Shown here: in pieces, positions 39,937-53,129 of the stretch
Position numbering within the stretch: the first letter of the stretch is position 1
Layout: every line of letters starts with the position of its first letter
NCBI GenBank assembly: GCA_902500125.1
Contig: GCA_902500125.1_4132.1
Reading direction: 5' to 3' (one strand)
DNA from: Escherichia coli
GTDB taxonomy: Bacteria; Pseudomonadota; Gammaproteobacteria; Enterobacterales; Enterobacteriaceae
Length of the DNA stretch: 64,000 nt
Notes under the pieces: model-generated
Databases searched by the model: none
Told to the model about the DNA's origin: nothing
Seen by the model: only the letters and a program-made list of their open reading frames with translations
Made by a program: the position numbers and the translations under genes

Positions 39937-39944
39937 AAAAGTAC

Positions 39945-40215: not shown

Positions 40216-40248
40216 AGATTTTATCAAGACAACTAAGAGGAAACAATA

Positions 40249-40461: not shown

Positions 40462-40480
40462 AAATATTATCACAGTACTA

Positions 40481-40509
40481 TTGACATAGTTTGATAGTAC
40501 TGGCATAAT
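40481..40509 (+). promoter_or_regulatory. class-2 promoter (duplicate of 40187 block)
   Basis: About 80 bp duplicated almost exactly, including the downstream RBS region. Confidence 0.55.
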
Positions 40510-40542
40510 AGATTTTATCAAGACAACTAAGAGGAAATTAAA

Positions 40543-40887
40543 ATGGCTAATATCAACACTATCGCAAAACAAAATATCAACCTGTCTTCTGTTGAAGTTG
40601 TACATATTGCCGCTCGGCGTTGGTTCCAGGCTTCATATGGTAACACTTATTTCTCTTTAAGTGTAGACGTAGAAATTGATGGTAATTTTATTGAAGTAGT
40701 AAACGTGCCGTTCCAATATGGATACGGGGATCACTTTGACACTGTAGCAATGGAAGAATTTAGCAAGGTTATTAATATGGAAGATAAAGAGTTTTTACGC
40801 GGTTCTTATCTTTCCCGTTTTTGCCGTGACAATAATATCACTGTTTACAGTTCGGTAACTGATGTTAAACGCAAAAAAGATCTTTAA
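40543..40887 (+). CDS. hypothetical early protein (114 aa); paralog of 46523..46846
   Basis: Shared NTY..S and C-terminal VKRKKD[LM]. Confidence 0.6.
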   Translation: MANINTIAKQNINLSSVEVVHIAARRWFQASYGNTYFSLSVDVEIDGNFIEVVNVPFQYGYGDHFDTVAMEEFSKVINMEDKEFLRGSYLSRFCRDNNITVYSSVTDVKRKKDL

Positions 40888-40967
40888 TTAGCTTTACTTT
40901 ATGCAGATACTTTGATATAGTGTCTGCATAGGGGAAAGAAATTAAATTAACTTAAGAGGATCGTATA

Positions 40968-41237
40968 ATGAAAAATATCAGTACTTTAATCGATGCAGGT
41001 ACACATGTTCGGCGGTCTATGGTTGCAACCAGTACTACAAAACAAGTAGCGAGCGGTTATCTTGTATTTGTGCACGATGGTAAACTCCTGGAACGTTCAA
41101 TCAATTTTGATGTTAAAAACAATTGCCGTTTTATTATCTTTCGCCGTGAACAATATAAGATCGACATTCCAGCGAAGCCCATTAGCGGTGCGTACAATGT
41201 GCAATCATTGTTTGAGCGTCAACCATACACCTATTAA
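40968..41237 (+). CDS. hypothetical protein (89 aa)
   Basis: RBS TAAGAGGATCGTATAATG. Confidence 0.55.
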   Translation: MKNISTLIDAGTHVRRSMVATSTTKQVASGYLVFVHDGKLLERSINFDVKNNCRFIIFRREQYKIDIPAKPISGAYNVQSLFERQPYTY

Positions 41238-41288
41238 TCAAAACATCGTTAGCGGTCGATTCAGGCCGCTTATATTGGGGATTATACC

Positions 41289-41561
41289 ATGAACGTTAAT
41301 CAAGTACTGAATGAGATCGAAAGCATCATTAAACCGATGAAGCGTACTGATGCTATGTTAACACCGGAAGAATGCCGCCTTTATGAGCGTTACAGCGTCG
41401 AACAAGTCCAGGCAATGGCTATGGCTACCCCAGCCGTTAAACCGCCTGAGAATGCGTTACAGGACGTTACAGGGGATTATATCATCAATCCAGTACTAGG
41501 GAAGATGGCTGCAATCACCGAAGATCAACAAGACTACTTAAGCCAGTACTTAAAAGGTTAA
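41289..41561 (+). CDS. hypothetical protein (90 aa)
   Basis: ORF track; RBS TGGGGATTATACCATG. Confidence 0.55.
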   Translation: MNVNQVLNEIESIIKPMKRTDAMLTPEECRLYERYSVEQVQAMAMATPAVKPPENALQDVTGDYIINPVLGKMAAITEDQQDYLSQYLKG

Positions 41562-41566
41562 TTAAT

Positions 41567-41776
41567 ATGCTTACTGTACAGGATAAGATCGACATCTTAA
41601 AGGTTAATATGTATGTGATTGATGCCGTACCTGGTAAAGTATTTGCATACGATGACACTACTGTAAGCGATTTCTACTATAGCCAGGCCGTGGGGGATCT
41701 TTCTGTACAGTCGGTTATTGAAAACGTAGTTAATGCAGCGTATGAGCATTTACTTTCAAATAGTACTTGCAATTAG
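41567..41776 (+). CDS. hypothetical protein (69 aa)
   Basis: ORF track; its 3' end overlaps the next promoter. Confidence 0.5.
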   Translation: MLTVQDKIDILKVNMYVIDAVPGKVFAYDDTTVSDFYYSQAVGDLSVQSVIENVVNAAYEHLLSNSTCN

Positions 41777-41826
41777 TTTTTAAACGCGTATAATGTTTTA
41801 CATGAAGGGGAGAAATGATTCTCCCC
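41767..41826 (+). promoter_or_regulatory. early cassette promoter + leader hairpin GGGGAGAAATGATTCTCCCC
   Basis: TTGCAA-N16-TATAAT. Confidence 0.6.
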
Positions 41827-41845
41827 ACTAATTAAGGAATATGAA

Positions 41846-41992
41846 ATGAAAGCATCAAAAAAGAGTAATACTAAGAAAGCACGTTCACCTTTCGCTGGGG
41901 TATTCCCTTTACGTTTCGTTGATGAAGTAGTTTCCTACCCGCCGGGCCTTACTCCTGAGATGGTAGAAAGTTTGCGTAAATCTAAAAAATAG
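41846..41992 (+). CDS. small basic protein (48 aa)
   Basis: RBS TTAAGGAATATGAAATG; below the track cutoff. Confidence 0.4.
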   Translation: MKASKKSNTKKARSPFAGVFPLRFVDEVVSYPPGLTPEMVESLRKSKK

Positions 41993-41995
41993 TAC

Positions 41996-42055
41996 TTGCA
42001 ATTAGTTTTTAGTACTGTATAATAGTTTACATGAAGGGGAGAAATGATTCTCCCC
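41996..42055 (+). promoter_or_regulatory. early cassette promoter + leader hairpin GGGGAGAAATGATTCTCCCC
   Basis: TTGCAA-N16-TGTATAAT; hairpin identical to the previous cassette. Confidence 0.6.
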
Positions 42056-42073
42056 AATAACAGGAGAAACAAA

Positions 42074-42226
42074 ATGAAACAATACAACGCTCGGTTTGAT
42101 GTTACTATCGGTAACGGCAAAGGTCAATTCTCTTTCAGTACTCGCAAAAGTTATACAGAAAACTTCCTGCGTAATTGTGCACTGACCGCCGCTCAAATTA
42201 AACATTATTTTCAGGCTAAAAAATGA
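42074..42226 (+). CDS. small hypothetical protein (50 aa)
   Basis: RBS ACAGGAGAAACAAAATG. Confidence 0.5.
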   Translation: MKQYNARFDVTIGNGKGQFSFSTRKSYTENFLRNCALTAAQIKHYFQAKK

Positions 42227-42312
42227 AATCATTAGCTTATTACAGTTCAGCGGTGATCGGTGCATTGATCGCGGCATTGTTAGTAACCTATCTATTCTTT
42301 ATGGTGATTTAA
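42223..42312 (+). CDS. 29-aa hydrophobic peptide
   Basis: ATGA-coupled; MKSLAYYSSAVIGALIAALLVTYLFFMVI. Confidence 0.3.
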   Translation: MKSLAYYSSAVIGALIAALLVTYLFFMVI

Positions 42313-42453
42313 ATGAATCCTAACGGTTTAATTTACAGTACTCCTAAAACGAAAGCAGATAAAGCGAAAGCACGTAAAGCGAAAGTAAAGGAGTACATTA
42401 AGCAAGGCATGACGCGAAAGGCCGCACTACTCAGAGTAAAGGCTGAAAAATAA
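42313..42453 (+). CDS. 46-aa basic peptide
   Basis: Starts right after the upstream stop; K/R-rich. Confidence 0.3.
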   Translation: MNPNGLIYSTPKTKADKAKARKAKVKEYIKQGMTRKAALLRVKAEK

Positions 42454-42461
42454 TTGAAAAA

Positions 42462-42492
42462 AGGGTTGACTCCGGTCAGTCCCTTTGCTATT
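42462..42492 (+). terminator. class T2 terminator/promoter element (AGGGTTGAC-TCCG-GTCAGTCCCTTTGCTATTAT)
   Basis: Hairpin followed by TTTG; TTGACT within the stem lies 17 nt from TATTAT. Confidence 0.65.
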
Positions 42493-42588
42493 ATATATAC
42501 ATACCAGCGATACACTGGCGGCCCATAGGGTGCACAAATGTATCTATTATATAAGTATTGAGTACTGAAAACTATTTTTAAAAAGTAC

Positions 42589-42647
42589 TTGCAAACTATC
42601 TCAATAAGCGTATAATGTTTTACATCGAAAGGGGAAACGGTTTCCCC
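42589..42647 (+). promoter_or_regulatory. early cassette promoter + leader hairpin GGGGAAACGGTTTCCCC
   Basis: TTGCAA-N16-TATAAT; preceded by intergenic element A. Confidence 0.6.
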
Positions 42648-42667
42648 TGGTAATAAGGAAACAAATC

Positions 42668-43009
42668 ATGACTATCTCAATTGCTCAATCTAACTTTGAA
42701 AATGAAATCATCGCCCAGGCACTGCGTTTAAATGATGGTCGGGCCGAAATTAATTACGGTTTCAATTCAGGCGGTTGTGAAAAATATCAGTACTTTGTAA
42801 CGGCTGATGGCGGTGTCCTGGGTATCAATACAGTTATTGTAAACATCCAAAAAATTAATTTCAATGATCCAGACGATAGCCAGTTTTACATCACGGGCGT
42901 AGACGTGAACTATGAGGATGACTCACTAACTGATGACTACACTGGTGAAACGTTAGAAAGTGCATACTGTGAAGATGATTATCAGTCCGGTCCAGAAGAT
43001 TTCGAATAA
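42668..43009 (+). CDS. acidic hypothetical protein (113 aa)
   Basis: RBS TAAGGAAACAAATCATG. Confidence 0.6.
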   Translation: MTISIAQSNFENEIIAQALRLNDGRAEINYGFNSGGCEKYQYFVTADGGVLGINTVIVNIQKINFNDPDDSQFYITGVDVNYEDDSLTDDYTGETLESAYCEDDYQSGPEDFE

Positions 43010-43024
43010 TATAAAAAAATAGTT

Positions 43025-43084
43025 TGACAATAGATTATAGTACTGTATAATAGTTTACATCAAGGGGAGAAAAACTTCTCCCCA
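43025..43084 (+). promoter_or_regulatory. early cassette promoter (TTGACA-N16-TGTATAAT) + hairpin GGGGAGAAAAACTTCTCCCC
   Basis: Consensus-like promoter. Confidence 0.65.
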
Positions 43085-43105
43085 CTAACAGAGAGAGAAA
43101 ACAAA

Positions 43106-43318
43106 ATGGCTAATATCTGCACTGTACTGAAAAATGCAAAACAAGTTTTATTTTCTGATCACGATCATTTAAACAAGGATATTACTGGCGTTCGGAATAT
43201 CAAAGATGTAAAAAGTGTTATGGGTATCTATTGCAATATGAAACGTGTTGGAACGTTCGGCGACAAAGTACTATACCAGGCAGGGGATTACAATTTTACA
43301 CTGACTATCATTAACTAA
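43106..43318 (+). CDS. hypothetical early protein (70 aa)
   Basis: RBS AGAGAGAGAAAACAAAATG. Confidence 0.55.
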   Translation: MANICTVLKNAKQVLFSDHDHLNKDITGVRNIKDVKSVMGIYCNMKRVGTFGDKVLYQAGDYNFTLTIIN

Positions 43319-43337
43319 AAATATATTACCAGTACTA

Positions 43338-43365
43338 TTGACATAGTTTGATAGTACTGTATAAT
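43338..43365 (+). promoter_or_regulatory. class-2 promoter (AGTACTATTGACATAGTTTGATAGTACTGTATAAT)
   Basis: TTGACA-N16-TGTATAAT. Confidence 0.55.
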
Positions 43366-43409
43366 AAGTTTTATAAACAGTAGTTAACTTAACCTAAGAG
43401 AGAAATAAA

Positions 43410-43553
43410 ATGATCGCACTGGATTCATTCATCGACGCAGTACTGGCAAAAACTGGCGAGGATCTGACCGCAGAACAATACGCGATGATCGAGCAATGTC
43501 AGCAAGACGGTAAATCGGTGAAAGATACTGTTAAGATTATCCGCAAGATGTAA
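43410..43553 (+). CDS. small acidic protein (47 aa)
   Basis: RBS TAAGAGAGAAATAAAATG; below the track cutoff. Confidence 0.4.
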   Translation: MIALDSFIDAVLAKTGEDLTAEQYAMIEQCQQDGKSVKDTVKIIRKM

Positions 43554-43560
43554 TATTATA

Positions 43561-43590
43561 GCCCACTGGTCAACGCTGGTGGGCTTTAAT
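43561..43590 (+). terminator. terminator-like hairpin AGCCCACTGG-TCAACG-CTGGTGGGCT
   Basis: 10-bp stem; weak T-tract (TTTAATCC). Confidence 0.45.
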
Positions 43591-43652
43591 CCTTTACCCT
43601 ATACAATGCCAGTACTAAACCGTTTATCTCGTTAGAATGCGTTACAGGACGT

Positions 43653-43856
43653 TTGACAATGATTAGCATGAAATCAGTACAAAAACAAATAGAAACATTA
43701 TCAAAAATTAAACGTAAACAGTACTCGTTAGAATATACAATCAATGGTAACTATCATCTAATGAAAGAGAATAATTTTATTGTCATTGATGAATCATTGC
43801 AAATCATTAGTATAGTACTGAAAGCATTAATCAATGACAGAAAAAAATTAAAATAA
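43653..43856 (+). CDS. hypothetical protein (67 aa)
   Basis: ORF track; weak RBS; AT-rich. Confidence 0.35.
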   Translation: MTMISMKSVQKQIETLSKIKRKQYSLEYTINGNYHLMKENNFIVIDESLQIISIVLKALINDRKKLK

Positions 43857-43860
43857 TCTA

Positions 43861-43889
43861 TTGACAATATCATCCAGTACTGGCATAAT
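43861..43889 (+). promoter_or_regulatory. promoter TTGACA-N17-CATAAT with ~295-nt leader
   Basis: TTGACAATATCATCCAGTACTGGCATAAT; the leader holds element A and a cluster of GATCAA/TGATCA motifs. Confidence 0.55.
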
Positions 43890-44185
43890 ACTTACATCAA
43901 GACGAGAACGTCACTAACCCATAGGGTGCACAAATGTAACTATATAATATCGATCAATAAATGATCAAAAAAGTACTGGATCAATTTAACATAAGGAGTA
44001 TAATTCTGATCAATTCTTGATCAAAGGCAATATACGCAGTTGAATTTATATAGACATTACAAAGGCGTTACTATCCGTGGTAATGCTGGTGGATATGTAG
44101 TATCATATGGTTTGAATAAGATTAGCACTAGTAGTATTATTGTAGCATTACAGTACTATAGTATTTTTATAATGAGGTTAAAATA

Positions 44186-44443
44186 ATGGCAGTAGGATAC
44201 GCGAAAGACGGGGCCGAACAAGACGAGATTCACGCAGTGATTCAGGCCGCCGTTAACCACGCTAGAAAGCAAATTAACGCACAAAGAGAATCACTGGTAC
44301 ATTGCCTCGACTGCGGCGATAAAATCCCTGAGAATCGACGCCAGGCCGTTATAGGGTGCATGTATTGTATTACTTGCCAGGAGGATCATGATAGTACTTT
44401 TAAAAGAGATCCGCGTAATTGTTGGCATAGATCTATGAGATAA
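44186..44443 (+). CDS. DksA/TraR-family C4 zinc-finger protein
   Basis: HCLDCGDKIPENRRQAVIGCMYCITCQ (C-x2-C...C-x2-C with a P-x-x-RR motif); RBS TGAGGTTAAAATAATG. Confidence 0.75.
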   Translation: MAVGYAKDGAEQDEIHAVIQAAVNHARKQINAQRESLVHCLDCGDKIPENRRQAVIGCMYCITCQEDHDSTFKRDPRNCWHRSMR

Positions 44444-44450
44444 AAAGTAA

Positions 44451-44478
44451 TTGACAGTACTGAAAGATAGTGTATAAT
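44451..44478 (+). promoter_or_regulatory. promoter TTGACA-N16-TGTATAAT
   Basis: TTGACAGTACTGAAAGATAGTGTATAATG. Confidence 0.6.
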
Positions 44479-44507
44479 GTTTTATATCTTAACTGAGGAT
44501 AGTAATC

Positions 44508-44864
44508 ATGGGAATACAACATATCACGCGTACTACTGACAATGGAGAGATCACTGGTTATCAGGTACAGGGCAAAGTAGCACAATTGCAGTACTGGTTT
44601 GTTAAACGTGGAATCATTGCACCGGATCTTGATTATGACCGTGTAGCGTTTATTGATTCTCTTTATGTTGATCCTGATAGTCGGGGCAATGGTGAAGGTA
44701 ACGAATTAATGAATGCCTTTATCGATGCCGCCGATGATTCAGATTGTATCATCTTAGAATGCGATACGGGAGAAGATAACGCCTTTAATCTTAAAGAATG
44801 GTACGAAGGTTTCGGATTCGAGGTATTGATAGATAGTGAATATCCTATCATGATTTTATCATAG
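44508..44864 (+). CDS. small GNAT-family acetyltransferase-like protein (118 aa)
   Basis: VDPDSRGNGEGNELMNAF (acetyl-CoA motif A-like R/Q-x-x-G-x-G) and ...KEWYEGFGFE; RBS TGAGGATAGTAATCATG. Confidence 0.5.
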   Translation: MGIQHITRTTDNGEITGYQVQGKVAQLQYWFVKRGIIAPDLDYDRVAFIDSLYVDPDSRGNGEGNELMNAFIDAADDSDCIILECDTGEDNAFNLKEWYEGFGFEVLIDSEYPIMILS

Positions 44865-44867
44865 TAC

Positions 44868-44924
44868 TTGCATTTAGTTTTCAGTACTGTTATAGTACTT
44901 GCATCAAGGGGAAACATCTTCCCC
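44868..44924 (+). promoter_or_regulatory. early cassette promoter (TTGCAT...TATAGT) + hairpin GGGGAAACATCTTCCCC
   Basis: -10 non-consensus. Confidence 0.45.
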
Positions 44925-44942
44925 TACTAAGAGGAAATAAAA

Positions 44943-45131
44943 ATGGAAAACTTATCAAGTATTTTAGTACAAGATGATTTCGGTAATCCTGGAAGTGCTA
45001 TCATTGTTCGGGGCAATAAAGCAACGTTTGTTATTGCTGGTGGACCCGTACAGCGTAGCATTAAAAATAATGCTGTTACCATTAATAATGTACGCTATCG
45101 CTTAGATAAAGAATTAATTCATAAACTGTAA
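44943..45131 (+). CDS. hypothetical early protein (62 aa)
   Basis: RBS TAAGAGGAAATAAAAATG. Confidence 0.55.
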   Translation: MENLSSILVQDDFGNPGSAIIVRGNKATFVIAGGPVQRSIKNNAVTINNVRYRLDKELIHKL

Positions 45132-45138
45132 AAAAGTA

Positions 45139-45200
45139 CTGGATAATAGATTATAGTACTGTATAATAGTTTACATGAAGGGGAGAAATGATTCTCCCCA
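45139..45200 (+). promoter_or_regulatory. early cassette promoter (weak -35, TGTATAAT) + hairpin GGGGAGAAATGATTCTCCCC
   Basis: Extended -10; third occurrence of this hairpin sequence. Confidence 0.5.
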
Positions 45201-45216
45201 CTAAGAGGAAAGAAAA

Positions 45217-45429
45217 ATGCAAGGTCAACTAATCGTTCGTAAATGGTCTGATACTAACGAAAAACCGTGGGATGTACAATACATCGCCCCCAATGGTGAA
45301 TCCAGATATCAACCAGGTGTAACGCATAGTACTGAGCAATTCGCCGCCGCTCATCGCGAACGTCTGTTACAATCAATGCAGCAAGGTTTCGGTGAAAAAT
45401 TCATTCAGGATCATTGGCTGAAAGATTAA
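45217..45429 (+). CDS. hypothetical early protein (70 aa)
   Basis: RBS TAAGAGGAAAGAAAAATG. Confidence 0.55.
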   Translation: MQGQLIVRKWSDTNEKPWDVQYIAPNGESRYQPGVTHSTEQFAAAHRERLLQSMQQGFGEKFIQDHWLKD

Positions 45430-45436
45430 AAAGTAC

Positions 45437-45494
45437 TTGCACTGTACTGAATAAAGTGTATAATGTTTTATATCGGAAGGGGAATAGTTCCCCT
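45437..45494 (+). promoter_or_regulatory. early cassette promoter + hairpin GGGGAATAGTTCCCC
   Basis: TTGCAC-N16-TGTATAAT. Confidence 0.6.
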
Positions 45495-45515
45495 CCTAAC
45501 AAAGAGGAAAGTATA

Positions 45516-45689
45516 ATGGTCCAGGTAGAATTAACAGTACTGAAAGATCTGTTTTATCGGATTGGTACTACTGGCGAATATCCGAAGGGTGATAATGCAA
45601 AACTTTACGTATCACTCGACTTATGGCAACGCGAACAATTAGCAACGGCCTGGCGTAAAGGCAAAGCAGATAGCGAGGTGAAAGCATGA
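45516..45689 (+). CDS. small hypothetical protein (57 aa)
   Basis: RBS AAAGAGGAAAGTATAATG after the hairpin. Confidence 0.5.
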   Translation: MVQVELTVLKDLFYRIGTTGEYPKGDNAKLYVSLDLWQREQLATAWRKGKADSEVKA

Positions 45690-45835
45690 AAGAATTCTTA
45701 TTTGAAGTAGTGTTTCAAGGTGTCGGTAGTAACCAACTGATTCGCTCAAGTGGTTATAATGTTAACCAGGCATGGAATAACATTAAACAAATGTACCCGA
45801 ACGCTATCACCTATCGCAACCCGAAAGAAGTTTAA
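45686..45835 (+). CDS. small hypothetical protein (49 aa)
   Basis: ATGA-coupled ORF MKEFLFEVVFQG...; below the track cutoff. Confidence 0.35.
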   Translation: MKEFLFEVVFQGVGSNQLIRSSGYNVNQAWNNIKQMYPNAITYRNPKEV

Positions 45836-45848
45836 AAATAATTGAAAA

Positions 45849-45880
45849 AGGGATTGACTCCGGTCAGTCCCTTTGCTATT
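45849..45880 (+). terminator. class T2 terminator/promoter element
   Basis: AAAAAGGGATTGACTCCGGTCAGTCCCTTTGCTATTATATACGCATAG. Confidence 0.65.
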
Positions 45881-45982
45881 ATATACGCATAGAAACAAAT
45901 TAGCCCACCGGGTGCATAAATGTATCTATTGTTTGCTGGTGGCTAGTACTATCAAGTACTGAAAACTATTTTTAAAAAGTAC

Positions 45983-46010
45983 TTGCATTGTAATTAGAAT
46001 CAAGTATAAT
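45983..46010 (+). promoter_or_regulatory. early promoter (TTGCAT-N16-TATAAT), upstream of tandem pair
   Basis: Part of a ~170-bp block duplicated from 35823-35990. Confidence 0.6.
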
Positions 46011-46020
46011 GTTTTACATC

Positions 46021-46100
46021 AGGACGGGGAACGAAACAAGTAACCCCGTTAAGTAGTCCAGGAGTAAGACATACGAAAAACTCCCCTGATAAAATAGTTT
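46021..46100 (+). ncRNA. structured leader/candidate small RNA (copy 2)
   Basis: Copy of 35881-35960 with stem-compatible substitutions (ACGGGGAACGAAACAAGTAACCCCGTT). Confidence 0.35.
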
Positions 46101-46126
46101 GACAATAGAAAGTAAACGAGTATAAT
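46099..46126 (+). promoter_or_regulatory. promoter TTGACA-N16-TATAAT (downstream of pair)
   Basis: TTGACAATAGAAAGTAAACGAGTATAATAC. Confidence 0.6.
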
Positions 46127-46159
46127 ACTTACATCAACCACTGATAAGGAAACATTAAA

Positions 46160-46435
46160 ATGCGGATTCTACTGACAGCTAACGAAATCGAACAAGTACT
46201 GACTACTAACCTGGAACAATGGAAACGTGATGCAGATATCCAGGCGGTTCAATGGCTTAACGATAAGTTAACGCCGGATGACTTAAGCAAGATTGTAGAT
46301 CCTCAATTCTACGAAGATATTCACGACACGGCTTTAAGCGTCGAGGATGTACTTGATAAGCATTACATTAATACCGATTTACAGGTTTACGGGCGTAAAA
46401 ACTTTATCACTATTCACGACATTTACAATACTTAA
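46160..46435 (+). CDS. hypothetical early protein (91 aa)
   Basis: RBS TAAGGAAACATTAAAATG. Confidence 0.6.
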   Translation: MRILLTANEIEQVLTTNLEQWKRDADIQAVQWLNDKLTPDDLSKIVDPQFYEDIHDTALSVEDVLDKHYINTDLQVYGRKNFITIHDIYNT

Positions 46436-46438
46436 GTA

Positions 46439-46497
46439 TTGACAAAGTATCTTAGTACTGTATAATAGTTTACATCAAGGCGGGGAAATGGTTCCCC
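46439..46497 (+). promoter_or_regulatory. early cassette promoter (TTGACA-N16-TGTATAAT) + hairpin CGGGGAAATGGTTCCCCT
   Basis: Consensus promoter. Confidence 0.65.
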
Positions 46498-46522
46498 TCC
46501 TAACAAAGAGAGAGAAATAAAA

Positions 46523-46846
46523 ATGGCTATGATCCTTACCCAGAAAGTGGAATTGAAAATTGTAACCTCCTTTGACATTAAAGTTAATCGCTGGACTGAT
46601 CGGAACGGCAATACTTACCACTCTTGCTACGTGTCTGCGTTAATTGGCGACCGCTGGGAAGACCTGGGACACGAAACCTTTACATACGGTTACGGTACGC
46701 AAGGCGAATACACTGGTTTGGAGATCATTAAAGAAACCGTTATAGGTTTCAACCCGAAAGAAAAAGTTATGCACCGCATCGAAAAAGAGATTAACAAAGA
46801 AATAACAGTTCGCTACTACGATGTAAAACGTAAGAAAGACATGTAA
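46523..46846 (+). CDS. hypothetical early protein (107 aa); paralog of 40543
   Basis: RBS AGAGAGAGAAATAAAAATG. Confidence 0.6.
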   Translation: MAMILTQKVELKIVTSFDIKVNRWTDRNGNTYHSCYVSALIGDRWEDLGHETFTYGYGTQGEYTGLEIIKETVIGFNPKEKVMHRIEKEINKEITVRYYDVKRKKDM

Positions 46847-46868
46847 TAGAATCCATTTAAAGTACTAT

Positions 46869-46897
46869 TTGACATTGCCCAGATAGTACTTTATAAT
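46869..46897 (+). promoter_or_regulatory. promoter TTGACA-N17-TATAAT
   Basis: TTGACATTGCCCAGATAGTACTTTATAAT. Confidence 0.6.
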
Positions 46898-46941
46898 AGA
46901 CTCTAACTTGTAGTACTAACTCAACTAATAGGATGTATACC

Positions 46942-47337
46942 ATGATTACTAAATTCTACGCTACCCGTGAAGCTGCCCGTATTGTTGCACGCGAGGAAGG
47001 AGCAGCATTTAAAGACATGGGAACGACAGCACCGAAAGGTCAACGCTGGGCCGTACAGTTCAAAGAAATCTCTGATATTGTGAATTCACCTGAGCCAGTA
47101 CTAACAGCAGCAGAACTAAAACGAGCGGATATGCTGGCGGCAATACTTGACGCACAAGATGAGTTTATCGCTGATTCTGATATCAAAGTACAGGTAAACC
47201 ACACCGCATGGACTCACGCGGATCACCTGGCAAACCTTAAGCGTCCAAGTGAACTGATTCGCAACCAGAAAGAGATCCGACATGATCGTAAGGGTAATCG
47301 TGTAACAGTATACAGTAAACGCCGCCAGGTTATCTAA
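46942..47337 (+). CDS. hypothetical protein (~131 aa); paralog of 35010
   Basis: MITKFYATREAARIVAREEGAAFKDMG...DRKGNRVTVY; RBS TAGGATGTATACCATG. Confidence 0.55.
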   Translation: MITKFYATREAARIVAREEGAAFKDMGTTAPKGQRWAVQFKEISDIVNSPEPVLTAAELKRADMLAAILDAQDEFIADSDIKVQVNHTAWTHADHLANLKRPSELIRNQKEIRHDRKGNRVTVYSKRRQVI

Positions 47338-47359
47338 TAACTTGCAGTACTAACAACAC

Positions 47360-47385
47360 GGCGGGATCAGTTCCCGCCTTTTTTA
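47360..47385 (+). terminator. rho-independent terminator (GGCGGGA-TCAG-TTCCCGCC + T6)
   Basis: Hairpin followed by TTTTTTA. Confidence 0.7.
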
Positions 47386-47398
47386 TAGGACAAACAAA

Positions 47399-47653
47399 AT
47401 GATTAAGGTTCAACTATATAAAGATAACATCTTACGGGTACACTATAAAGCACCGAAGAGAATCATCACAAAGGCCGTACAGCTTGCTAATGAGTTTATT
47501 AATGGTAACCTATTACCAAGGAAGTTAAGCAACGGGAAACTGCGTGTAATCGACGTGGACACTAACAACAGGATAGTAATCGAGAACACAGGAAAAATAA
47601 ACCTTTATGAGCATCAACAATACAATAAGAAAATAAAACTAATATCACGTTGA
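47399..47653 (+). CDS. hypothetical protein (84 aa)
   Basis: RBS ATAGGACAAACAAAATG. Confidence 0.55.
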   Translation: MIKVQLYKDNILRVHYKAPKRIITKAVQLANEFINGNLLPRKLSNGKLRVIDVDTNNRIVIENTGKINLYEHQQYNKKIKLISR

Positions 47654-47679
47654 CAGTACTCAAATGTTTTAGTATTATG
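47650..47679 (+). promoter_or_regulatory. promoter TTGACA-N18-TATTAT (duplicated block, copy 1)
   Basis: TTGACAGTACTCAAATGTTTTAGTATTATG. Confidence 0.5.
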
Positions 47680-47706
47680 TACACATACCAACACGGGAGA
47701 AACAAA

Positions 47707-47925
47707 ATGAAATTATCTAAAATCGAAAAGAAAACTATTGATGAAGCAGTTAAGCACGGTTATACCTTTCGTAATGATTCACATTTTACCAATTTTCAAC
47801 AGGGGTATCGTACTATTAAAAAACTAATTGACAAAGGTTTATTAGTTGAAGTCAATAATGGGAACGGTATCGAGTATCAGCCAACCCAAGACGCATTATC
47901 TTTAAAGAAATATAATATTATCTAA
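47707..47925 (+). CDS. hypothetical protein (72 aa)
   Basis: RBS ACGGGAGAAACAAAATG. Confidence 0.55.
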   Translation: MKLSKIEKKTIDEAVKHGYTFRNDSHFTNFQQGYRTIKKLIDKGLLVEVNNGNGIEYQPTQDALSLKKYNII

Positions 47926-47953
47926 TTGACAGTACTCAAATGTTTTAGTACTA
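47926..47953 (+). promoter_or_regulatory. promoter (duplicated block, copy 2)
   Basis: TTGACAGTACTCAAATGTTTTAGTACTAT. Confidence 0.45.
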
Positions 47954-47983
47954 TATGTACATACCAACACGGGGAAAAACAAA

Positions 47984-48226
47984 ATGATTACTTTAGAAAA
48001 ACGTATCAAAGAAACTACATCGCTGGTGGAATTGTTAACAGTACTCAAATGTAAAACAACACCATTCAGCACGCCGGACTTTATTAATATGGTTGATGTT
48101 AATGGTCGCTATCGTATCACGGTCGAACAAGGAGCGGCGAAAGTATTCAGTACTAAAAACACGAAGGAAGTGATCCACGCCGTTAATGTTAAAAAAGTAG
48201 TTGCCATTGATAGTAAAGTACTGTAA
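47984..48226 (+). CDS. hypothetical protein (80 aa)
   Basis: RBS ACGGGGAAAAACAAAATG. Confidence 0.55.
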   Translation: MITLEKRIKETTSLVELLTVLKCKTTPFSTPDFINMVDVNGRYRITVEQGAAKVFSTKNTKEVIHAVNVKKVVAIDSKVL

Positions 48227-48257
48227 TATAGTTTCATTAACTCAAGGAGAACATGCA

Positions 48258-48842
48258 ATGCGTAATTATACTAAATTCATCCGTACACTGTCAGAAATGG
48301 AAACCAACAAAGAGATCCTTTCAGCTTGTCGGTTAGCTGGCCTGGAGATCATCGGTGCTGGTTCTTCCCGTATAGTTTTCGCTTTAAATGATCGGTTAGT
48401 GATTAAGGTCGCGAATTGTGATGCGGGTGTAGAACAAAATGAAACTGAATGTAAGGTATGGAATTTTTTAGACTATGACCGCCCTCAGTTGAAACAGTAC
48501 TTTGCAAAGGTGCATATGCATTTATGCGATCCTGATAATATGTTTATCGTTATGGATCGGTTGAGTACTGCAAGCAAAGGTAGTGTGAAGCACGTAAACG
48601 CGTGCAATGAATTAAAGTACAATATTAAACGTAATGCAATCGAACGCCAGCACCGCTTTGCTGATGCACTACAACACGTCGATGATACATTATCAACACT
48701 AACGATAAGAGATATCAGAAAACAGAATATCGGCCAGGATCGTAATGGCCTTATTAAAGTACTTGATTACGGTTTAACCTGCAATATCTGGAATCAGTAC
48801 TATAAAAAGCGTGATGTGGCAGCAAGTAAGGTAACACGATAA
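48258..48842 (+). CDS. small protein-kinase-like protein (~194 aa)
   Basis: RBS AAGGAGAACATGCAATG; IIGAGSSRIVF (G-loop), VIKVA, IRDIRKQNIG (catalytic-loop-like), KVLDYG (DFG-like). Confidence 0.6.
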   Translation: MRNYTKFIRTLSEMETNKEILSACRLAGLEIIGAGSSRIVFALNDRLVIKVANCDAGVEQNETECKVWNFLDYDRPQLKQYFAKVHMHLCDPDNMFIVMDRLSTASKGSVKHVNACNELKYNIKRNAIERQHRFADALQHVDDTLSTLTIRDIRKQNIGQDRNGLIKVLDYGLTCNIWNQYYKKRDVAASKVTR

Positions 48843-48855
48843 AAAAGATTAAAAA

Positions 48856-48890
48856 AGGGATTGACTCCGGTCAGTCCCTTTGCTATTATA
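48856..48890 (+). terminator. class T2 terminator/promoter element
   Basis: AAAAAAGGGATTGACTCCGGTCAGTCCCTTTGCTATTATATA. Confidence 0.65.
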
Positions 48891-48983
48891 TATCCATTGA
48901 GAGATAACTCACTGACCCATAGGGTGCGGAAGTGTATCTATTATATAAGTATTCAGTACTGAAAACTATTTTTTAAAAAGTAC

Positions 48984-49046
48984 TTGCATTGTACTTAGAA
49001 TCAAGTATAATGTTTTATATCGAGAGGGGGAAATGGTTCTCCCTGG
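48984..49046 (+). promoter_or_regulatory. early cassette promoter + hairpin GGGGGAAATGGTTCTCCC
   Basis: TTGCAT-N16-TATAAT; preceded by element A. Confidence 0.6.
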
Positions 49047-49065
49047 TATATTAAGGAATAAAATC

Positions 49066-49287
49066 ATGACTACAATGACTTGCATTTACGCTTCCAATCG
49101 TCTGAATGATGCGGCCTTTAATGTTGATTCAGAATATCAATGTTATCGGGATGAAAATAAAAAAGTTTTTGTAGTTGATAATAATGGTTTCCATATTGAA
49201 TTACAATCCGGCTTCACTGGTGTTGATGGTAAATCAGTATGGGGCGTACAGGATGATAAAGGTACATATCATTTTAAACGTAATTAA
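49066..49287 (+). CDS. hypothetical early protein (73 aa)
   Basis: RBS TTAAGGAATAAAATCATG. Confidence 0.55.
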   Translation: MTTMTCIYASNRLNDAAFNVDSEYQCYRDENKKVFVVDNNGFHIELQSGFTGVDGKSVWGVQDDKGTYHFKRN

Positions 49288-49291
49288 GTAT

Positions 49292-49353
49292 TTGACAAAG
49301 TATCTTAGTACTGTATAATAGTTTACATCAAGGGGAGAATAGTTCTCCCCGAT
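49292..49353 (+). promoter_or_regulatory. early cassette promoter (TTGACA-N16-TGTATAAT) + hairpin GGGGAGAATAGTTCTCCCC
   Basis: Consensus promoter. Confidence 0.65.
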
Positions 49354-49371
49354 ACTAAAAGGAATAAAATC

Positions 49372-49776
49372 ATGACTACTACTAATCTTGCTCGGAATAT
49401 CGCCAACGATAAAAATCATGCTGCAATGGTCGCTGGTTACATTGAAGCTATGCAATTCAGTACTGTACATAATGATAACGGCGATTACCTGGAAGATTAT
49501 GAGTTATCTGATGAAGCACGTCAAGCGGCGGTGATTGCATGTTCTCGCTTCATTGAGAAACACGGTAATGATCTGGAAGTAGTTCGCGGTATGTTTATTG
49601 ATTACGGTTATGAGCAAGCTGGTCATGATCTGTTCCTTACCCGCGAAGGTCACGGAACTGGTTTTTGGGATCGTGGTTTAGGTCACTATGGCGATGTATT
49701 CACGAAGTACTGCGAAGAAATCAACGTTTGCGATCCCTATGTAGGCGATGATAACTTAATCTATATGGGCGAATAA
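49372..49776 (+). CDS. hypothetical early protein (134 aa)
   Basis: RBS AAAAGGAATAAAATCATG. Confidence 0.6.
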   Translation: MTTTNLARNIANDKNHAAMVAGYIEAMQFSTVHNDNGDYLEDYELSDEARQAAVIACSRFIEKHGNDLEVVRGMFIDYGYEQAGHDLFLTREGHGTGFWDRGLGHYGDVFTKYCEEINVCDPYVGDDNLIYMGE

Positions 49777-49782
49777 AAGTAT

Positions 49783-49843
49783 TTGACAAAGTATATCAGT
49801 ACTGTATAATAGTTTACATCAAGGGGAGAATAGTTCTCCCCAA
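49783..49843 (+). promoter_or_regulatory. early cassette promoter (TTGACA-N16-TGTATAAT) + hairpin GGGGAGAATAGTTCTCCCC
   Basis: Near-duplicate of the 49292 cassette. Confidence 0.65.
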
Positions 49844-49863
49844 TACTAAAAGGAAACAAAATT

Positions 49864-50136
49864 ATGTCCAGCTACTCCGCTACTATGATCATTAAAGATA
49901 TGAACGGTAATCCTACTTCTGCTGGTGGATCATTTGGAAATATTAACTTAGATGGGCGGTTATCCATGCAATCAGCCATCGATGCAGCGAAAGAAGTTTT
50001 TAAGAATGAATGTACTGTTAGTAAGCTGGATTATATGGGTTTCGCTATCGAGAAAACTACTCGTTTTGTGAACTACAAAAATCCACTGATGATTGATACT
50101 AACCTGAAAGCTAACGAAGTGGGGTACTTATTATGA
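49864..50136 (+). CDS. hypothetical early protein (90 aa)
   Basis: RBS AAAAGGAAACAAAATTATG. Confidence 0.6.
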   Translation: MSSYSATMIIKDMNGNPTSAGGSFGNINLDGRLSMQSAIDAAKEVFKNECTVSKLDYMGFAIEKTTRFVNYKNPLMIDTNLKANEVGYLL

Positions 50137-50324
50137 CAGTAGAAGAAGTAAAAAAAGTACTGGCAGTACTACGATATCATAATCATTGCAAGGTGAAGAA
50201 TGATCCTGATTATCTTGATTCATCCCTGGAGGAAGACACCTTGAACGCTATAAGCCATATGCAGACATTAGCAAAGCGTATGACTGAAAAGAACATGCCG
50301 GACTATATCGGAAATAAAATTTAA
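50133..50324 (+). CDS. hypothetical protein (63 aa)
   Basis: ATGA-coupled. Confidence 0.5.
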   Translation: MTVEEVKKVLAVLRYHNHCKVKNDPDYLDSSLEEDTLNAISHMQTLAKRMTEKNMPDYIGNKI

Positions 50325-50331
50325 AAAGTAC

Positions 50332-50393
50332 TTGCATTGTAGTTAGATTAACGTATAATGTTTTATATCGAGAGGGGGAAATGGTTTCCCCTC
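50332..50393 (+). promoter_or_regulatory. early cassette promoter + hairpin GGGGGAAATGGTTTCCCC
   Basis: TTGCAT-N16-TATAAT. Confidence 0.6.
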
Positions 50394-50411
50394 AAGTCCA
50401 GGAGATACACA

Positions 50412-50675
50412 ATGAACACTATCGAAATCACTATCAATGCACACGTATACGACAACGTAGTACTGCAAACTACTATGACCGCTAATGATACCAGTACTTT
50501 GCGGAATACTGTTATTAGTGCCGTATGTGCTGCAATCGGTGATGTATCCCTGGAAAATGCAGAACATATCAACAACGGTTTCACTATGTGCAAGCGTGAT
50601 AACGCAAAACATATCATCGTGGAAGGTTACGGCGGTGTAGAATTTAATGTTTATATGAAAAAAGTACTTGCATAA
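50412..50675 (+). CDS. hypothetical early protein (87 aa)
   Basis: RBS CCAGGAGATACACAATG. Confidence 0.55.
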   Translation: MNTIEITINAHVYDNVVLQTTMTANDTSTLRNTVISAVCAAIGDVSLENAEHINNGFTMCKRDNAKHIIVEGYGGVEFNVYMKKVLA

Positions 50676-50724
50676 TAACTAAAACAAAGTATAATGTTTT
50701 GCATAGGGGGAGATATCCTCCCCC
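50668..50724 (+). promoter_or_regulatory. early cassette promoter + hairpin GGGGGAGATATCCTCCCCC
   Basis: TTGCAT-N16-TATAAT; overlaps the 3' end of the upstream gene. Confidence 0.55.
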
Positions 50725-50742
50725 ACTAAAAGGAGTAATAAA

Positions 50743-50967
50743 ATGGCTAACTTTGATGAACTGATGCGGGAAGTAGCTAACCTGGCAGAAGAGAAGAAAT
50801 CATTCGATTCTATCTATAACACCGCTCACCGTGATTCAGTACTGGCATGTAACCAGGATCAAAAAGATGAACTAATCGCCACCTATCATGAAGCATGGAA
50901 GTACTACCGACAATGGGAGAAAGAAGAAAGTGAGTCTACCATTGACGGCCTCAATAATCTAATCTAA
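50743..50967 (+). CDS. hypothetical early protein (74 aa)
   Basis: RBS AAAGGAGTAATAAAATG. Confidence 0.6.
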   Translation: MANFDELMREVANLAEEKKSFDSIYNTAHRDSVLACNQDQKDELIATYHEAWKYYRQWEKEESESTIDGLNNLI

Positions 50968-50986
50968 AAGTTTTATTTCAGTACTA

Positions 50987-51016
50987 TTGACATAGCTTGA
51001 TAGTACTGATGTAATA
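50987..51016 (+). promoter_or_regulatory. class-2 promoter (AGTACTATTGACATAGCTTGATAGTACTGATGTAAT)
   Basis: TTGACA-N17-TGTAAT. Confidence 0.5.
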
Positions 51017-51043
51017 ACTTTACTAACTACAAGGGGAAACATA

Positions 51044-51301
51044 ATGGATCAGTTCACACAATATCGGGTAAATCCTCAAGCTATGGCCTACGTAGAAGAC
51101 CATAAAACGTTACCAGTACTGCAACCAGTTAAAGGCCATATCTATCGTGCAATGTCGTGGTGTGCGGCCCAGGATGGCTATAAAACCGTAGCCGTTGGTA
51201 TGTACTGCGGTAATGGTGAATGGTTTGATCCAAATAATCCGGTATCCATTGACAGTACTGAAAAAATGAAATGGGCCGACTACATCGAAGATATTTCATA
51301 A
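51044..51301 (+). CDS. hypothetical protein (85 aa)
   Basis: RBS AAGGGGAAACATAATG. Confidence 0.55.
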   Translation: MDQFTQYRVNPQAMAYVEDHKTLPVLQPVKGHIYRAMSWCAAQDGYKTVAVGMYCGNGEWFDPNNPVSIDSTEKMKWADYIEDIS

Positions 51302-51308
51302 AAACTAT

Positions 51309-51370
51309 TTGACAGTACTAACCAGTAATGTATAATGTTTTACATAGAGCGGGGGAATAGTTCTCCCGCC
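51309..51370 (+). promoter_or_regulatory. early cassette promoter (TTGACA-N16-TATAAT) + hairpin GCGGGGGAATAGTTCTCCCGCC
   Basis: Consensus promoter. Confidence 0.65.
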
Positions 51371-51391
51371 AATAGTTTGGAGTAAAACATT

Positions 51392-51592
51392 ATGTCTATC
51401 GCTATCGCCCTGGTTGAAGTACTGAAAGAAGCTAAAGCCAACCAGATCGACGTAAAGATCCAGGAACTACAAAACGGCTTAATCGGCTGTACTTGTACCG
51501 CTGGTGGAGCGGCAGACTATCGAGAACACGAATCACTCGAATCACTGGTTCGGTATCTTACCATGATCGTTGATGATTGGAGAATCATCTAA
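51392..51592 (+). CDS. hypothetical early protein (66 aa)
   Basis: RBS TTGGAGTAAAACATTATG. Confidence 0.55.
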   Translation: MSIAIALVEVLKEAKANQIDVKIQELQNGLIGCTCTAGGAADYREHESLESLVRYLTMIVDDWRII

Positions 51593-51608
51593 CAAAAAAG
51601 AATAAAAA

Positions 51609-51640
51609 AGGGATTGACTCCGGTCAGTCCCTTTGCTATT
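51609..51640 (+). terminator. class T2 terminator/promoter element
   Basis: AAAAAGGGATTGACTCCGGTCAGTCCCTTTGCTATTATATACGCATAG. Confidence 0.65.
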
Positions 51641-51754
51641 ATATACGCATAGACAAAAACTAGCCCACAGGGTGCATAGGTGTATCCAAAATATATAGTT
51701 AATAACGGTGAGTAACTATCTGCTGGTGGAACTAAAACTATTAATAAAAAAGTA

Positions 51755-51783
51755 TTGACAAAGTATATCAGTACTGCAATAAT
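51755..51783 (+). promoter_or_regulatory. promoter TTGACA-N16-CAATAAT
   Basis: AAAAAGTATTGACAAAGTATATCAGTACTGCAATAATG. Confidence 0.45.
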
Positions 51784-51836
51784 GTATCTCGTAGGGCGGC
51801 AATGGTGCGACGGCCCACAAAGTTAGGAGATTCAAA

Positions 51837-52169
51837 ATGACTACTTCAATCGCTATCGTTAAAGCTTTCATCCGTACTAATGTTTCCTCTGTATTCATCG
51901 ACGGCCTCGACCGTAACGTAGAATACTCAATCATTATCGCACAAACGGCAAACGGTTCTCGGTACATCCTGAATGATAGTGAAGCAAATCACTACTACTT
52001 CACTAAAGCCACTGGCTTTAAACGCATCGATGCTGATGTAGTATACGCTAAGATGAATAAGCTGGTAGACAAGATTAACGCGAAAGGTACTATCGATTTA
52101 CAGTACTGGACCGAAACCGATCCAGAATATGGATCTCACCGCTACCTGAATCCAGGTATTAAAATGTAA
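51837..52169 (+). CDS. hypothetical protein (110 aa)
   Basis: RBS TTAGGAGATTCAAAATG. Confidence 0.6.
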   Translation: MTTSIAIVKAFIRTNVSSVFIDGLDRNVEYSIIIAQTANGSRYILNDSEANHYYFTKATGFKRIDADVVYAKMNKLVDKINAKGTIDLQYWTETDPEYGSHRYLNPGIKM

Positions 52170-52176
52170 AAAGTAC

Positions 52177-52236
52177 TTGCATAGTACTTAGAATCAAGTA
52201 TAATGTTTTACATAGAGAGGGGGAAATGGTTCTCCC
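52177..52236 (+). promoter_or_regulatory. early cassette promoter + hairpin GAGGGGGAAATGGTTCTCCCTC
   Basis: TTGCAT-N16-TATAAT. Confidence 0.6.
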
Positions 52237-52258
52237 TCCTAAATTAAGGAGTTTTATC

Positions 52259-52660
52259 ATGACCTTCTCAATCAATTCCTTCGCTGACGTTTTAGTACTG
52301 GCCCGGACTTTTGGTAAAGCTGGCCTTGAACACGCTGTAAGTAATGGTCATATGCACCCTGAATATTGCCGCATCATTGGAAGCTGTAAACGTTGGGCCG
52401 TGTCCCGTAACATTGAGATTGAAAACTTCAATGACGGTAACAACGAATATACAGTTGATGCAGTATTCGAATCCGTTGATCTCGGCGGTATCTATAACAC
52501 TAACCTGAATGATGTGCGTATCGTTCGCACGGGGTTCGGTGCTTATGATGTATCTATCCGTGAAGCTATGGACAAGGGATACATTAGCAAGGACCAGTTA
52601 GCTTACATCATGCAGCAAACTAAGGAACGTAACGAAGCACGTACTATCTTAGGGCTGTAA
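52259..52660 (+). CDS. hypothetical early protein (133 aa)
   Basis: RBS TTAAGGAGTTTTATCATG. Confidence 0.6.
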   Translation: MTFSINSFADVLVLARTFGKAGLEHAVSNGHMHPEYCRIIGSCKRWAVSRNIEIENFNDGNNEYTVDAVFESVDLGGIYNTNLNDVRIVRTGFGAYDVSIREAMDKGYISKDQLAYIMQQTKERNEARTILGL

Positions 52661-52685
52661 GCAATACACATCACCAAACATCATA

Positions 52686-52708
52686 GGCCGCTCTCTAGCG
52701 GCCTTAAC
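52686..52708 (+). terminator. terminator-like palindrome AGGCCGCTCTCTAGCGGCCT
   Basis: 8-bp stem; weak T-tract. Confidence 0.35.
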
Positions 52709-52728
52709 TATATCAGGAGGGCATACAT

Positions 52729-52938
52729 ATGTTCTATACAGTATACAGCGTTCTAGGCACTATTGCAGGCGTACATGATAACGTCGATAGTGCTATGCGT
52801 ACAGTACTGCAACAGGTTCCACTAAAGCCTAAGACCATTAAGCAGATGACAGCACGACTAACCAGGGCGACGGCTGGCGTGGAAGTATGGCAGGACTATG
52901 GGGATACACAGATAATCGTAAGCGTAACGAAGGATTAA
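52729..52938 (+). CDS. hypothetical protein (69 aa)
   Basis: RBS TCAGGAGGGCATACATATG. Confidence 0.55.
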   Translation: MFYTVYSVLGTIAGVHDNVDSAMRTVLQQVPLKPKTIKQMTARLTRATAGVEVWQDYGDTQIIVSVTKD

Positions 52939-53129
52939 TGCGTAAAAGGATTTAGTACTGAATCATAAAAAAGTCAAGGCATTTTTAAAAATCAGCGTTA
53001 AAAAAATGCATAGGTAATCCCTTGACTTTTATGAATAAAAAGGGATTGGACTATGGCAAAATGCGTAGGGGGCTTAACTGCGGGTAACCTTAGCGACTTC
53101 GATAAAGGGGTATTACTAATAAAATGTTA

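Follow-up and report, generated by a model that had tools for sequence, protein, structure and literature searches.

A minimal kinase-like protein encoded within the terminal repeat of an Asteriusvirus-type jumbo phage

Can a protein that ends shortly after the DFG-type motif of protein kinases still work as a kinase, and on what would a jumbo phage use it? The question is raised by a 194-amino-acid (aa) protein encoded on the plus strand of a 64,000-nucleotide (nt) stretch of DNA (hereafter the window) from Escherichia coli assembly GCA_902500125.1, contig GCA_902500125.1_4132.1 (Table 1). An initial annotation had described its gene as the third of three mini-kinase paralogs, lying in an early region far from the other two. 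We find that the gene is real, that its product is, as that annotation proposed, a very small protein-kinase-like protein in which the catalytic Asp is intact and a DFG-type motif is present, and that a kinase-like core is supported by homology, fold, and catalytic-residue conservation. Our favored interpretation, to which we give about an even chance, is that the product is an early, constitutively active minimal protein-kinase-like phosphotransferase, most likely acting on host (or phage) proteins.

Kinase homology, catalytic residues, and fold

The open reading frame (ORF) contains the RDIRKQNIG and DYG motifs on which its annotation had rested (residues 151–159 and 170–172). When the window was translated in six frames, the composite pattern of Gly-loop, K, E, D-x4-N, and D[FY]G matched once, against no match in 100 shuffles, and the core D-x4-N...D[FY]G pattern matched twice, in the 194-aa gene and in an ORF at ∼12.9 kb, again with none in shuffles. 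The gene evolves under purifying selection, with pairwise ratios of nonsynonymous to synonymous substitution rates (dN/dS) of 0.03–0.18 among seven Asteriusvirus orthologues, and the position of its stop codon is kept across the intact orthologues inspected. Two database records depart from this picture: in PBECO4 (KC295538.1), the gene is annotated from an internal Met as a 147-aa product with the Gly-loop cut off, and in the UNVERIFIED record of CMSTMSU (MH494197.1), the gene copy is broken by frameshifts. Both are probably annotation or sequencing artefacts.

Table 1. Coordinates of the kinase gene, its sequence features, and related elements in the window
Feature	Position (nt)	Strand	Basis and remarks
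CDS, minimal kinase-like protein	48258..48842	+	ATG start, 194 aa, stop included
Shine-Dalgarno AAGGAG	48244..48249	+	8 nt 5' of ATG; read from sequence
Gly-rich (ATP phosphate-binding) loop GAGSSRIV, residues 33–40	48354..48377	+	coordinates, conservation
K50 codon, β3 "VAIK" Lys equivalent, in VIKV	48405..48407	+	invariant in A1/A2/A3; N-lobe in MAP2K7 alignment
E64 codon, helix C Glu equivalent, in QNETE	48447..48449	+	invariant in A1/A2/A3; within model helix 55–73
Catalytic loop RDIRKQNIG, residues 151–159	48708..48734	+	aligned with HRDxKxxN loops of MAP2K4 and PknB-type kinases
D170-Y-G172, DFG (Mg-binding) equivalent	48765..48773	+	aligned with DFG of MAP2K4/7 and BTK
Possible own promoter TTGCCA-17-TAATAT	48201..48229	+	consensus scan, 9/12; in 3' end of upstream ORF
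Imperfect 12-bp hairpin after stop	48854..48881	+	consensus scan; possible weak terminator, no proper T-run
Direct terminal repeat equivalent	32398..53090	+	blastn mapping of vB_Ec-M-J repeat; kinase gene ∼15.9 kb in
Distant paralog, 123-aa "micro-kinase"	12963..13334 (ORF open from 12918)	+	phrog_4301 E 1.5e-43; hhalign
T7 gp0.7-type kinase, 224 aa	9156..9830	+	phrog_15752 E 2.5e-97; phrog_2828 E 8.8e-17

With the single sequence as query, Pkinase (PF00069) was the only Pfam family matched, and only weakly (E 0.0035, 17.2 bits), and the best phmmer match among PDB sequences was MAP2K4 (E 0.009). Among solved structures, a 12-sequence profile matched MAP2K4 and MAP2K7 at E 2-4e-4, with the MAP2K7 alignment covering the Gly-loop through DFG, and a profile of 49 sequences again gave MAP2K4 as the best match (E 4.2e-6); the best 60 of its 629 matches (E ≤ 1) were all protein kinases. 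Five of these 49 family members themselves match Pfam Pkinase (best E 5.7e-6). The aminoglycoside phosphotransferase (APH), RIO, Kdo, and choline-kinase families returned no Pfam or profile match to the 194-aa protein even at E ≤ 10, and a scan of NCBIfam returned no family. The protein does match PHROG 4301, a family annotated as "unknown function" (E 4.3e-41, residues 3–188 on profile positions 13–185 of 225). Weak matches to the PD-T4-6 defense kinases among PADLOC profiles are attributable to the shared kinase core.

Conservation was read from alignments of close homologues (A1), 49 diverse members (A2), 41 sequences (A3), and the family of the 123-aa paralog discussed below (A4). Across the 49 diverse members, R38, K50, G57, E64, D170, and G172 are invariant, with the same picture in the 41-sequence set, and S36, V40, Q60, N61, D152, and G159 are nearly invariant. 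D152 is invariant among close homologues and nearly so in A2 and A3. D170 and G172 do not vary in A1 or A2 and hardly do so in A3, and within the close (RaK2-type) subfamily N157 is almost always kept. G33 and G35 of the Gly-loop are conserved, while the third Gly position is taken by Arg38 throughout the family. Read in kinase terms from these alignments, the conserved positions are the phosphate loop, the β3 Lys, the helix C Glu, the catalytic Asp, and the DFG Asp. D152 is separated from N157 by 5 residues and from D170 by 18, the same spacings as in PKA (D166/N171/D184).

The family also has features of its own. E64 belongs to a signature G-x2-Q-N-x2-E (G57-x2-Q60-N61-x2-E64), and S36, R38, Q60, and N61 are without protein-kinase counterparts. 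The view that this protein has the clearest HRD-like loop of the three candidates did not survive comparison: Ile150 stands where HRD has its His, the position of Arg151 varies in homologues (I, Q, A, G, N, or T), and the 123-aa relative has the more canonical loop, D-A-K-P-E-N.

Structure prediction with AlphaFold2 (AF2) depended on alignment depth. A model from 12 close sequences had a predicted local distance difference test score (pLDDT) of 48.5 and was discarded; with 41 sequences, pLDDT reached 93.3 and the predicted template modelling (TM) score was 0.89. This model has the bilobal kinase fold, with strands at residues 30–34, 38–42, 47–52, and 96–100 and short ones around 158–168, and with two N-terminal helices followed by helices at 55–73 (long), 109–120, 130–145, and, last, 175–182. 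K50 lies on strand 47–52 and E64 on helix 55–73. Its anatomy is that of an N-lobe with five strands and helix C, joined by a hinge to helices D and E, after which come the catalytic loop, the DFG-type motif, and a short C-terminal helical cap. We regard the fold assignment, as modelled, as secure, though without a close structural relative.

Only kinase subdomains I–VII are represented. The protein ends 22 residues past the DYG glycine, G172, with a single helix (175–182) in that tail, and the activation segment, the APE motif, the helix F Asp, and helices F–I (subdomains VIII–XI) are absent. In protein kinases, peptide substrates bind to this missing half, which also anchors the hydrophobic spines. 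The tail after the DxG motif has a median length of 22 residues in 147 single-domain relatives and is ≤ 30 residues long in 71% of them. Truncation is thus the norm of the family and not peculiar to this phage.

These observations bear on the most deflationary account, in which a small hypothetical ORF resembles a kinase in its motifs by chance or is the decayed remnant of a longer kinase gene. The sub-threshold Pfam match, the best single-sequence phmmer value of only 0.009 against the PDB, and the poor pLDDT of the shallow-alignment model speak for it, but the composite motif is absent from all shuffles, the profile E improves with alignment depth (2e-4 to 4e-6), the 41-sequence model is confident, and the length and end point recur family-wide. 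Purifying selection and the conserved stop position argue in the same direction, and no orthologue was seen with a frameshift or read-through into a C-lobe ORF, except for the UNVERIFIED CMSTMSU record. We count this account as refuted and its probability as very small.

Terminal-repeat position and family distribution

The region at 47–50 kb of the window is 95–98% identical to the Asteriusvirus jumbo phages of E. coli fEgEco12, ph0011, G17, Sharanji, vB_Ec-M-J, PBECO4, and 121Q, whose genomes are ∼350–385 kb. In vB_Ec-M-J, the orthologue (16690–17274) lies inside an annotated repeat_region (1–21525; 21,525 bp), and the ∼21-kb terminal repeat of fEgEco12 has been confirmed by restriction digests (PMC13070987). 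The gene in the window lies in the equivalent direct terminal repeat and would therefore be present in two copies per packaged genome. It is 39 and 35 kb away from the other two candidates (starting at 9156 and 12918), so its wide separation from them, noted initially, holds as well.

Placement in an early region is also supported. The repeat is packed with small plus-strand ORFs, and of the 13 perfect TTGACA-N16-18-TATAAT promoters found in the window (1509..51309), all on the plus strand, 11 fall between 32.7 and 51.3 kb, in the repeat. Most share an extended AGTACTGTATAAT element, and the perfect promoters form a strikingly uniform early-promoter family. The putative promoter of the kinase gene itself is a weaker copy of these regional AGTACTGTATAAT-type promoters. 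The hairpin that follows the gene overlaps the next promoter, TTGACT-17-TATTAT (48861–48889), its 3' arm doubling as the −35 region of that promoter, and the two form a compact junction that resembles a terminator and promoter in one. Regions of phage CBB, a relative, that combine RpoD-type promoters with short ORFs and extend into the terminal repeat have been read as early host-takeover genes (PMC5259590). Given the terminal-repeat location, the plus-strand sigma-70 promoters, and the CBB precedent, it is reasonable to expect early expression dependent on host RNA polymerase.

A tblastn search recovered homologues in 60 phage records, including Klebsiella phages RaK2, K64-1, and Muenster, Salmonella phages Munch, 7t3, and SE_PL, Erwinia and Xanthomonas jumbo phages, Yersinia phage fHe-Yen9-04, and Pectobacterium phage CBB. 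An exhaustive profile search yielded 2,075 cluster representatives at E ≤ 1e-3 and 249 at E ≤ 1e-10 (the ∼2,000 family clusters are defined at 50% identity). An IMG/VR scan with the close alignment returned phage 121Q only. Among family members, no Pfam families were matched beyond weak Pkinase or ABC1 matches. Two distant members lie on contigs of 240 and 291 kb with phage-type genes (homing endonucleases, a T4 endonuclease V-type enzyme, and RtcB), and these contigs are jumbo-phage-like; tandem paralogs were looked for near distant homologues and none was found.

Metagenomic members show further arrangements of the domain. P0021 and P0023 have 3–5 tandem mini-kinase domain copies per polypeptide, and P0136 has two copies inside a 3,248-aa protein with a phage minor-tail/tape-measure domain. 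Such tape-measure-like embedding suggests an injected effector.

Possible activity, substrates, and competing interpretations

If the protein is an active phosphotransferase, Mg-ATP would be bound through the G33/G35/R38 loop, the K50–E64 pair, N157, and D170, with K50–E64 positioning the phosphates and N157 and D170 binding the metals, and D152 would serve as the catalytic base. Having no activation segment, the enzyme would have no loop-phosphorylation switch and would probably be constitutively active. Host RNA polymerase would transcribe the gene early from the direct terminal repeat, and the product would then phosphorylate host (possibly phage) proteins for host takeover or counter-defense, as does the unrelated T7 kinase. 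Protein substrates appear most likely because the sequence shows affinity to Ser/Thr/Tyr kinases only, because the loop of the 123-aa paralog reads D-x-K-P-E-N, because T7 gp0.7 kinase (T7K) and HopBF1 provide precedents, and because the distribution of the family, including its tape-measure-like embedding, is effector-like.

Both precedents are partial. T7K, a hyperpromiscuous anti-defense kinase that disarms defenses by phosphorylation (PMC13645617), is likewise phage-encoded, early, and small and lacks a canonical regulated activation loop, and T7-like phage kinases were matched by Foldseek (E ∼1e-5, TM ∼0.55). T7K nevertheless shows no significant sequence or profile similarity to the 194-aa protein, which matched neither PHROG 2828 nor PHROG 15752 at E ≤ 1, and it has D-P-V where the latter has a canonical D-Y-G. 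The 194-aa protein is also without the shut-off or DNA-binding C-terminal domain of T7K, and it is shorter than the T7K kinase domain, in which DPV alone occupies residues 213–215. HopBF1 is an active, minimal atypical kinase of ∼200 residues that phosphorylates HSP90 (PMC9950578), so that kinases this reduced can act on a specific protein; as published, it is likewise a stand-alone reduced kinase used by a parasite on its host, but it is a bacterial type III secreted effector acting in eukaryotic cells. Canonical Pkinase members (MAP2K4/7, PknB) share the Gly-loop, Lys, Glu, Asp-x4-Asn, and DFG-type motifs and the Asp-Asp spacing of 18, and differ from the 194-aa protein in that the latter ends 22 residues past DFG, has Arg for the third Gly, and does not conserve the His-Arg of HRD.

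Several points weigh against early phosphorylation of proteins by this enzyme. The Pkinase score of 17.2 bits is below the gathering threshold of 31.7, the Foldseek TM score is only ∼0.4 against any solved structure, and the protein resembles aminoglycoside phosphotransferases and the tRNA kinase ArkI equally well in structure. All canonical peptide-binding elements (activation segment/P+1 loop, APE, helices F–G) are absent, so that protein substrates are not implied by the fold, and in the 49-member alignment of the wider family N157 is no longer conserved. The gene's own putative promoter matches the consensus at only 9 of 12 positions. Selection against a promiscuous kinase is not apparent from the Ser/Thr/Tyr content of the small proteins encoded nearby; their fraction is 0.17, versus 0.26 in large minus-strand genes, a comparison that is uninformative because the latter set looks like S/T-rich structural proteins. 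Finally, the literature searched holds no biochemical, expression, or phosphoproteomic data for the family.

The absent peptide-binding lobe, together with the equal similarity to APH and ArkI and one RNA-repair-type fusion, makes a serious rival of an active kinase-fold phosphotransferase with a non-protein substrate, such as RNA or tRNA, a nucleotide, or a signaling or other small molecule, with roles such as RNA repair or modification or the neutralization of a host defense signal. The fusion is P0116, a 2,130-aa metagenomic protein in which the domain is joined to GNAT, 2H RNA-ligase-type, and CCA/poly(A)-polymerase domains, and one homologue lies ∼4 kb from RtcB and adjoins a P-loop kinase. 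The invariant S36, R38, Q60, and N61, which protein kinases lack, would also fit such a substrate. ArkI is itself a member of the eukaryotic protein kinase superfamily that has missing subdomains and phosphorylates tRNA (PMC9095486). ArkI/Ark1 differs from the phage protein, however, in keeping subdomains IX and XI (the helix F region) and in its archaeal/thermophile setting and tRNA substrate (it is a tRNA 2'-kinase), and no sequence similarity between the two was detected. Further evidence favors proteins: the profiles match Pkinase-type proteins only, none of the APH, RIO, Kdo, or choline-kinase families being recovered even at E ≤ 10, the paralog has the D-x-K-P-E-N loop of Ser/Thr protein kinases, the RNA-domain fusion is a single case, no tRNA genes were found in the window, and the tape-measure-like embedding, which suggests an injected effector, gives no pointer to RNA. 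We consider a non-protein substrate rather unlikely.

A second rival would have the protein serve as an ATPase switch or a pseudokinase-like binder that sequesters or remodels a host factor, in the manner of RIO or Bud32, which act mainly through ATP hydrolysis within complexes. Loss of the N157-equivalent Asn in much of the wider family would be in keeping with such a role. In the protein and its close relatives, however, none of the five catalytic positions has been lost and purifying selection on them is strong, and D152, a residue for phosphotransfer and not for binding, is invariant in close homologues and nearly so family-wide. No partner gene was found consistently linked to the kinase gene, the only recurrent neighbor being a ParE-like gene nearby in two lineages. 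RIO, Bud32, and APH further differ in their larger helical C-lobe, and the RIO1, Kdo, and APH families of Pfam gave no match to the 194-aa protein at E ≤ 10. With the catalytic Asp conserved, we regard this role as improbable, and a phosphotransferase acting on proteins remains the interpretation that we favor.

The kinase-like nature of the protein is not new. GenBank labels of orthologues read "protein kinase", "putative protein kinase", "serine/threonine-protein kinase PRP4", and "PknA", UniProt names the PBECO4 copy "Protein kinase domain-containing protein", and in the genome paper on Sharanji a single sentence refers to the orthologue WNN14351.1 as "another protein kinase" of unknown function. 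The literature searched contains no description of the family, its systematic truncation, the 120-residue sister family, or an activity.

Other kinase genes and neighboring ORFs

The claim that the three candidates are paralogs was borne out for one of the other two genes and not for the other. The ORF at 12918..13334 most likely starts at ATG 12963, as in the G17 annotation, and would encode a 123-aa protein with a G-A-T-R loop, K, N..E, D-A-K-P-E-N, and DYG, ending one residue past DYG. Direct searches for paralogs in the window (phmmer and a family hidden Markov model built without the 123-aa protein) returned nothing significant, and the relationship surfaced only through PHROG 4301 and profile-profile alignment: hhalign of A3 against A4 aligned 104 columns, spanning Gly-loop to DYG, with a probability of 95.4% (E 1.9e-8). 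By these comparisons, the 123-aa protein is a true though strongly diverged paralog, in which this core is smaller still. Its family, represented in A4 by 14 diverse members of 118–127 aa, conserves G-x-T-R, K, N-x2-E, D-x-K-P-E-N, and DYG, and all members end one residue after DYG. If folded and active, these proteins would represent a remarkably small kinase core. The ORF downstream of the paralog starts overlapping its stop codon.

The gene at 9156..9830 belongs instead to the T7 gp0.7 family. Its product has D-P in place of DFG and is without the shut-off domain, and it shows no significant profile similarity to the 194-aa family; the two are related at the fold level only. It corresponds to the T7K homologues of jumbophages G17 and Munch reported in 2026 through the PHROG 2828 profile (PMC13645617).

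The T7K work presents phage kinases as broad counter-defense weapons and left open the role of T7-like kinases in G17- and Munch-type jumbo phages. Besides a T7K homologue, the phage studied here carries two members of a separate kinase lineage whose reduction goes much further; both lie among small, early-looking plus-strand ORFs, and one is in the terminal repeat. If active, they would define a lower size limit for a working kinase fold, pose the question of how substrates are recognized without a C-lobe, and provide further host-takeover or anti-defense candidates in therapeutic jumbo coliphages; if inactive, they would constitute a widespread phage pseudokinase family. A bolder generalization, possible but in our view doubtful, is that a large, essentially phage-restricted family of "half-kinases" (subdomains I–VII) and its sister family of ∼120 residues comprise the smallest catalytically competent kinase-fold enzymes, delivered at the start of infection as terminal-repeat early genes or embedded in tape-measure proteins, and modifying host targets, possibly RNA or nucleotides, through a way of recognizing substrates that no characterized protein kinase shares.

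Neighbors of the kinase gene in the repeat are annotated, among others, as encoding a DksA-like protein and a GNAT acetyltransferase. Two genes upstream (47399..47653, plus strand), a small gene encodes a ParE-like domain of toxin type (PF24732, E 4.6e-11), for which no antitoxin was identified. In a 52%-identical relative, a ParE-like gene (5745..5996) lies immediately upstream of the kinase gene. A toxin-antitoxin-like pairing of the two was considered and not adopted, the genes being adjacent in one relative and two genes apart here, with no further support.

Elsewhere in the window, four hydrophobic and apparently paralogous ORFs of 112–122 aa (10176..11211 and 14942..15280, plus strand) occur partly between and partly beyond the two upstream kinase genes; three of them, in tandem, have similar C-termini (…NIPEK, …NLPER, and …NMPNR), and the fourth ends in …KIRGDF. 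Past the repeat, at 53.1–64 kb on the plus strand (vB_Ec-M-J 21.6–30 kb), there is a long run of ORFs of ∼70–85 aa with overlapping start and stop codons, unlike in the repeat itself, where genes have promoters of their own.

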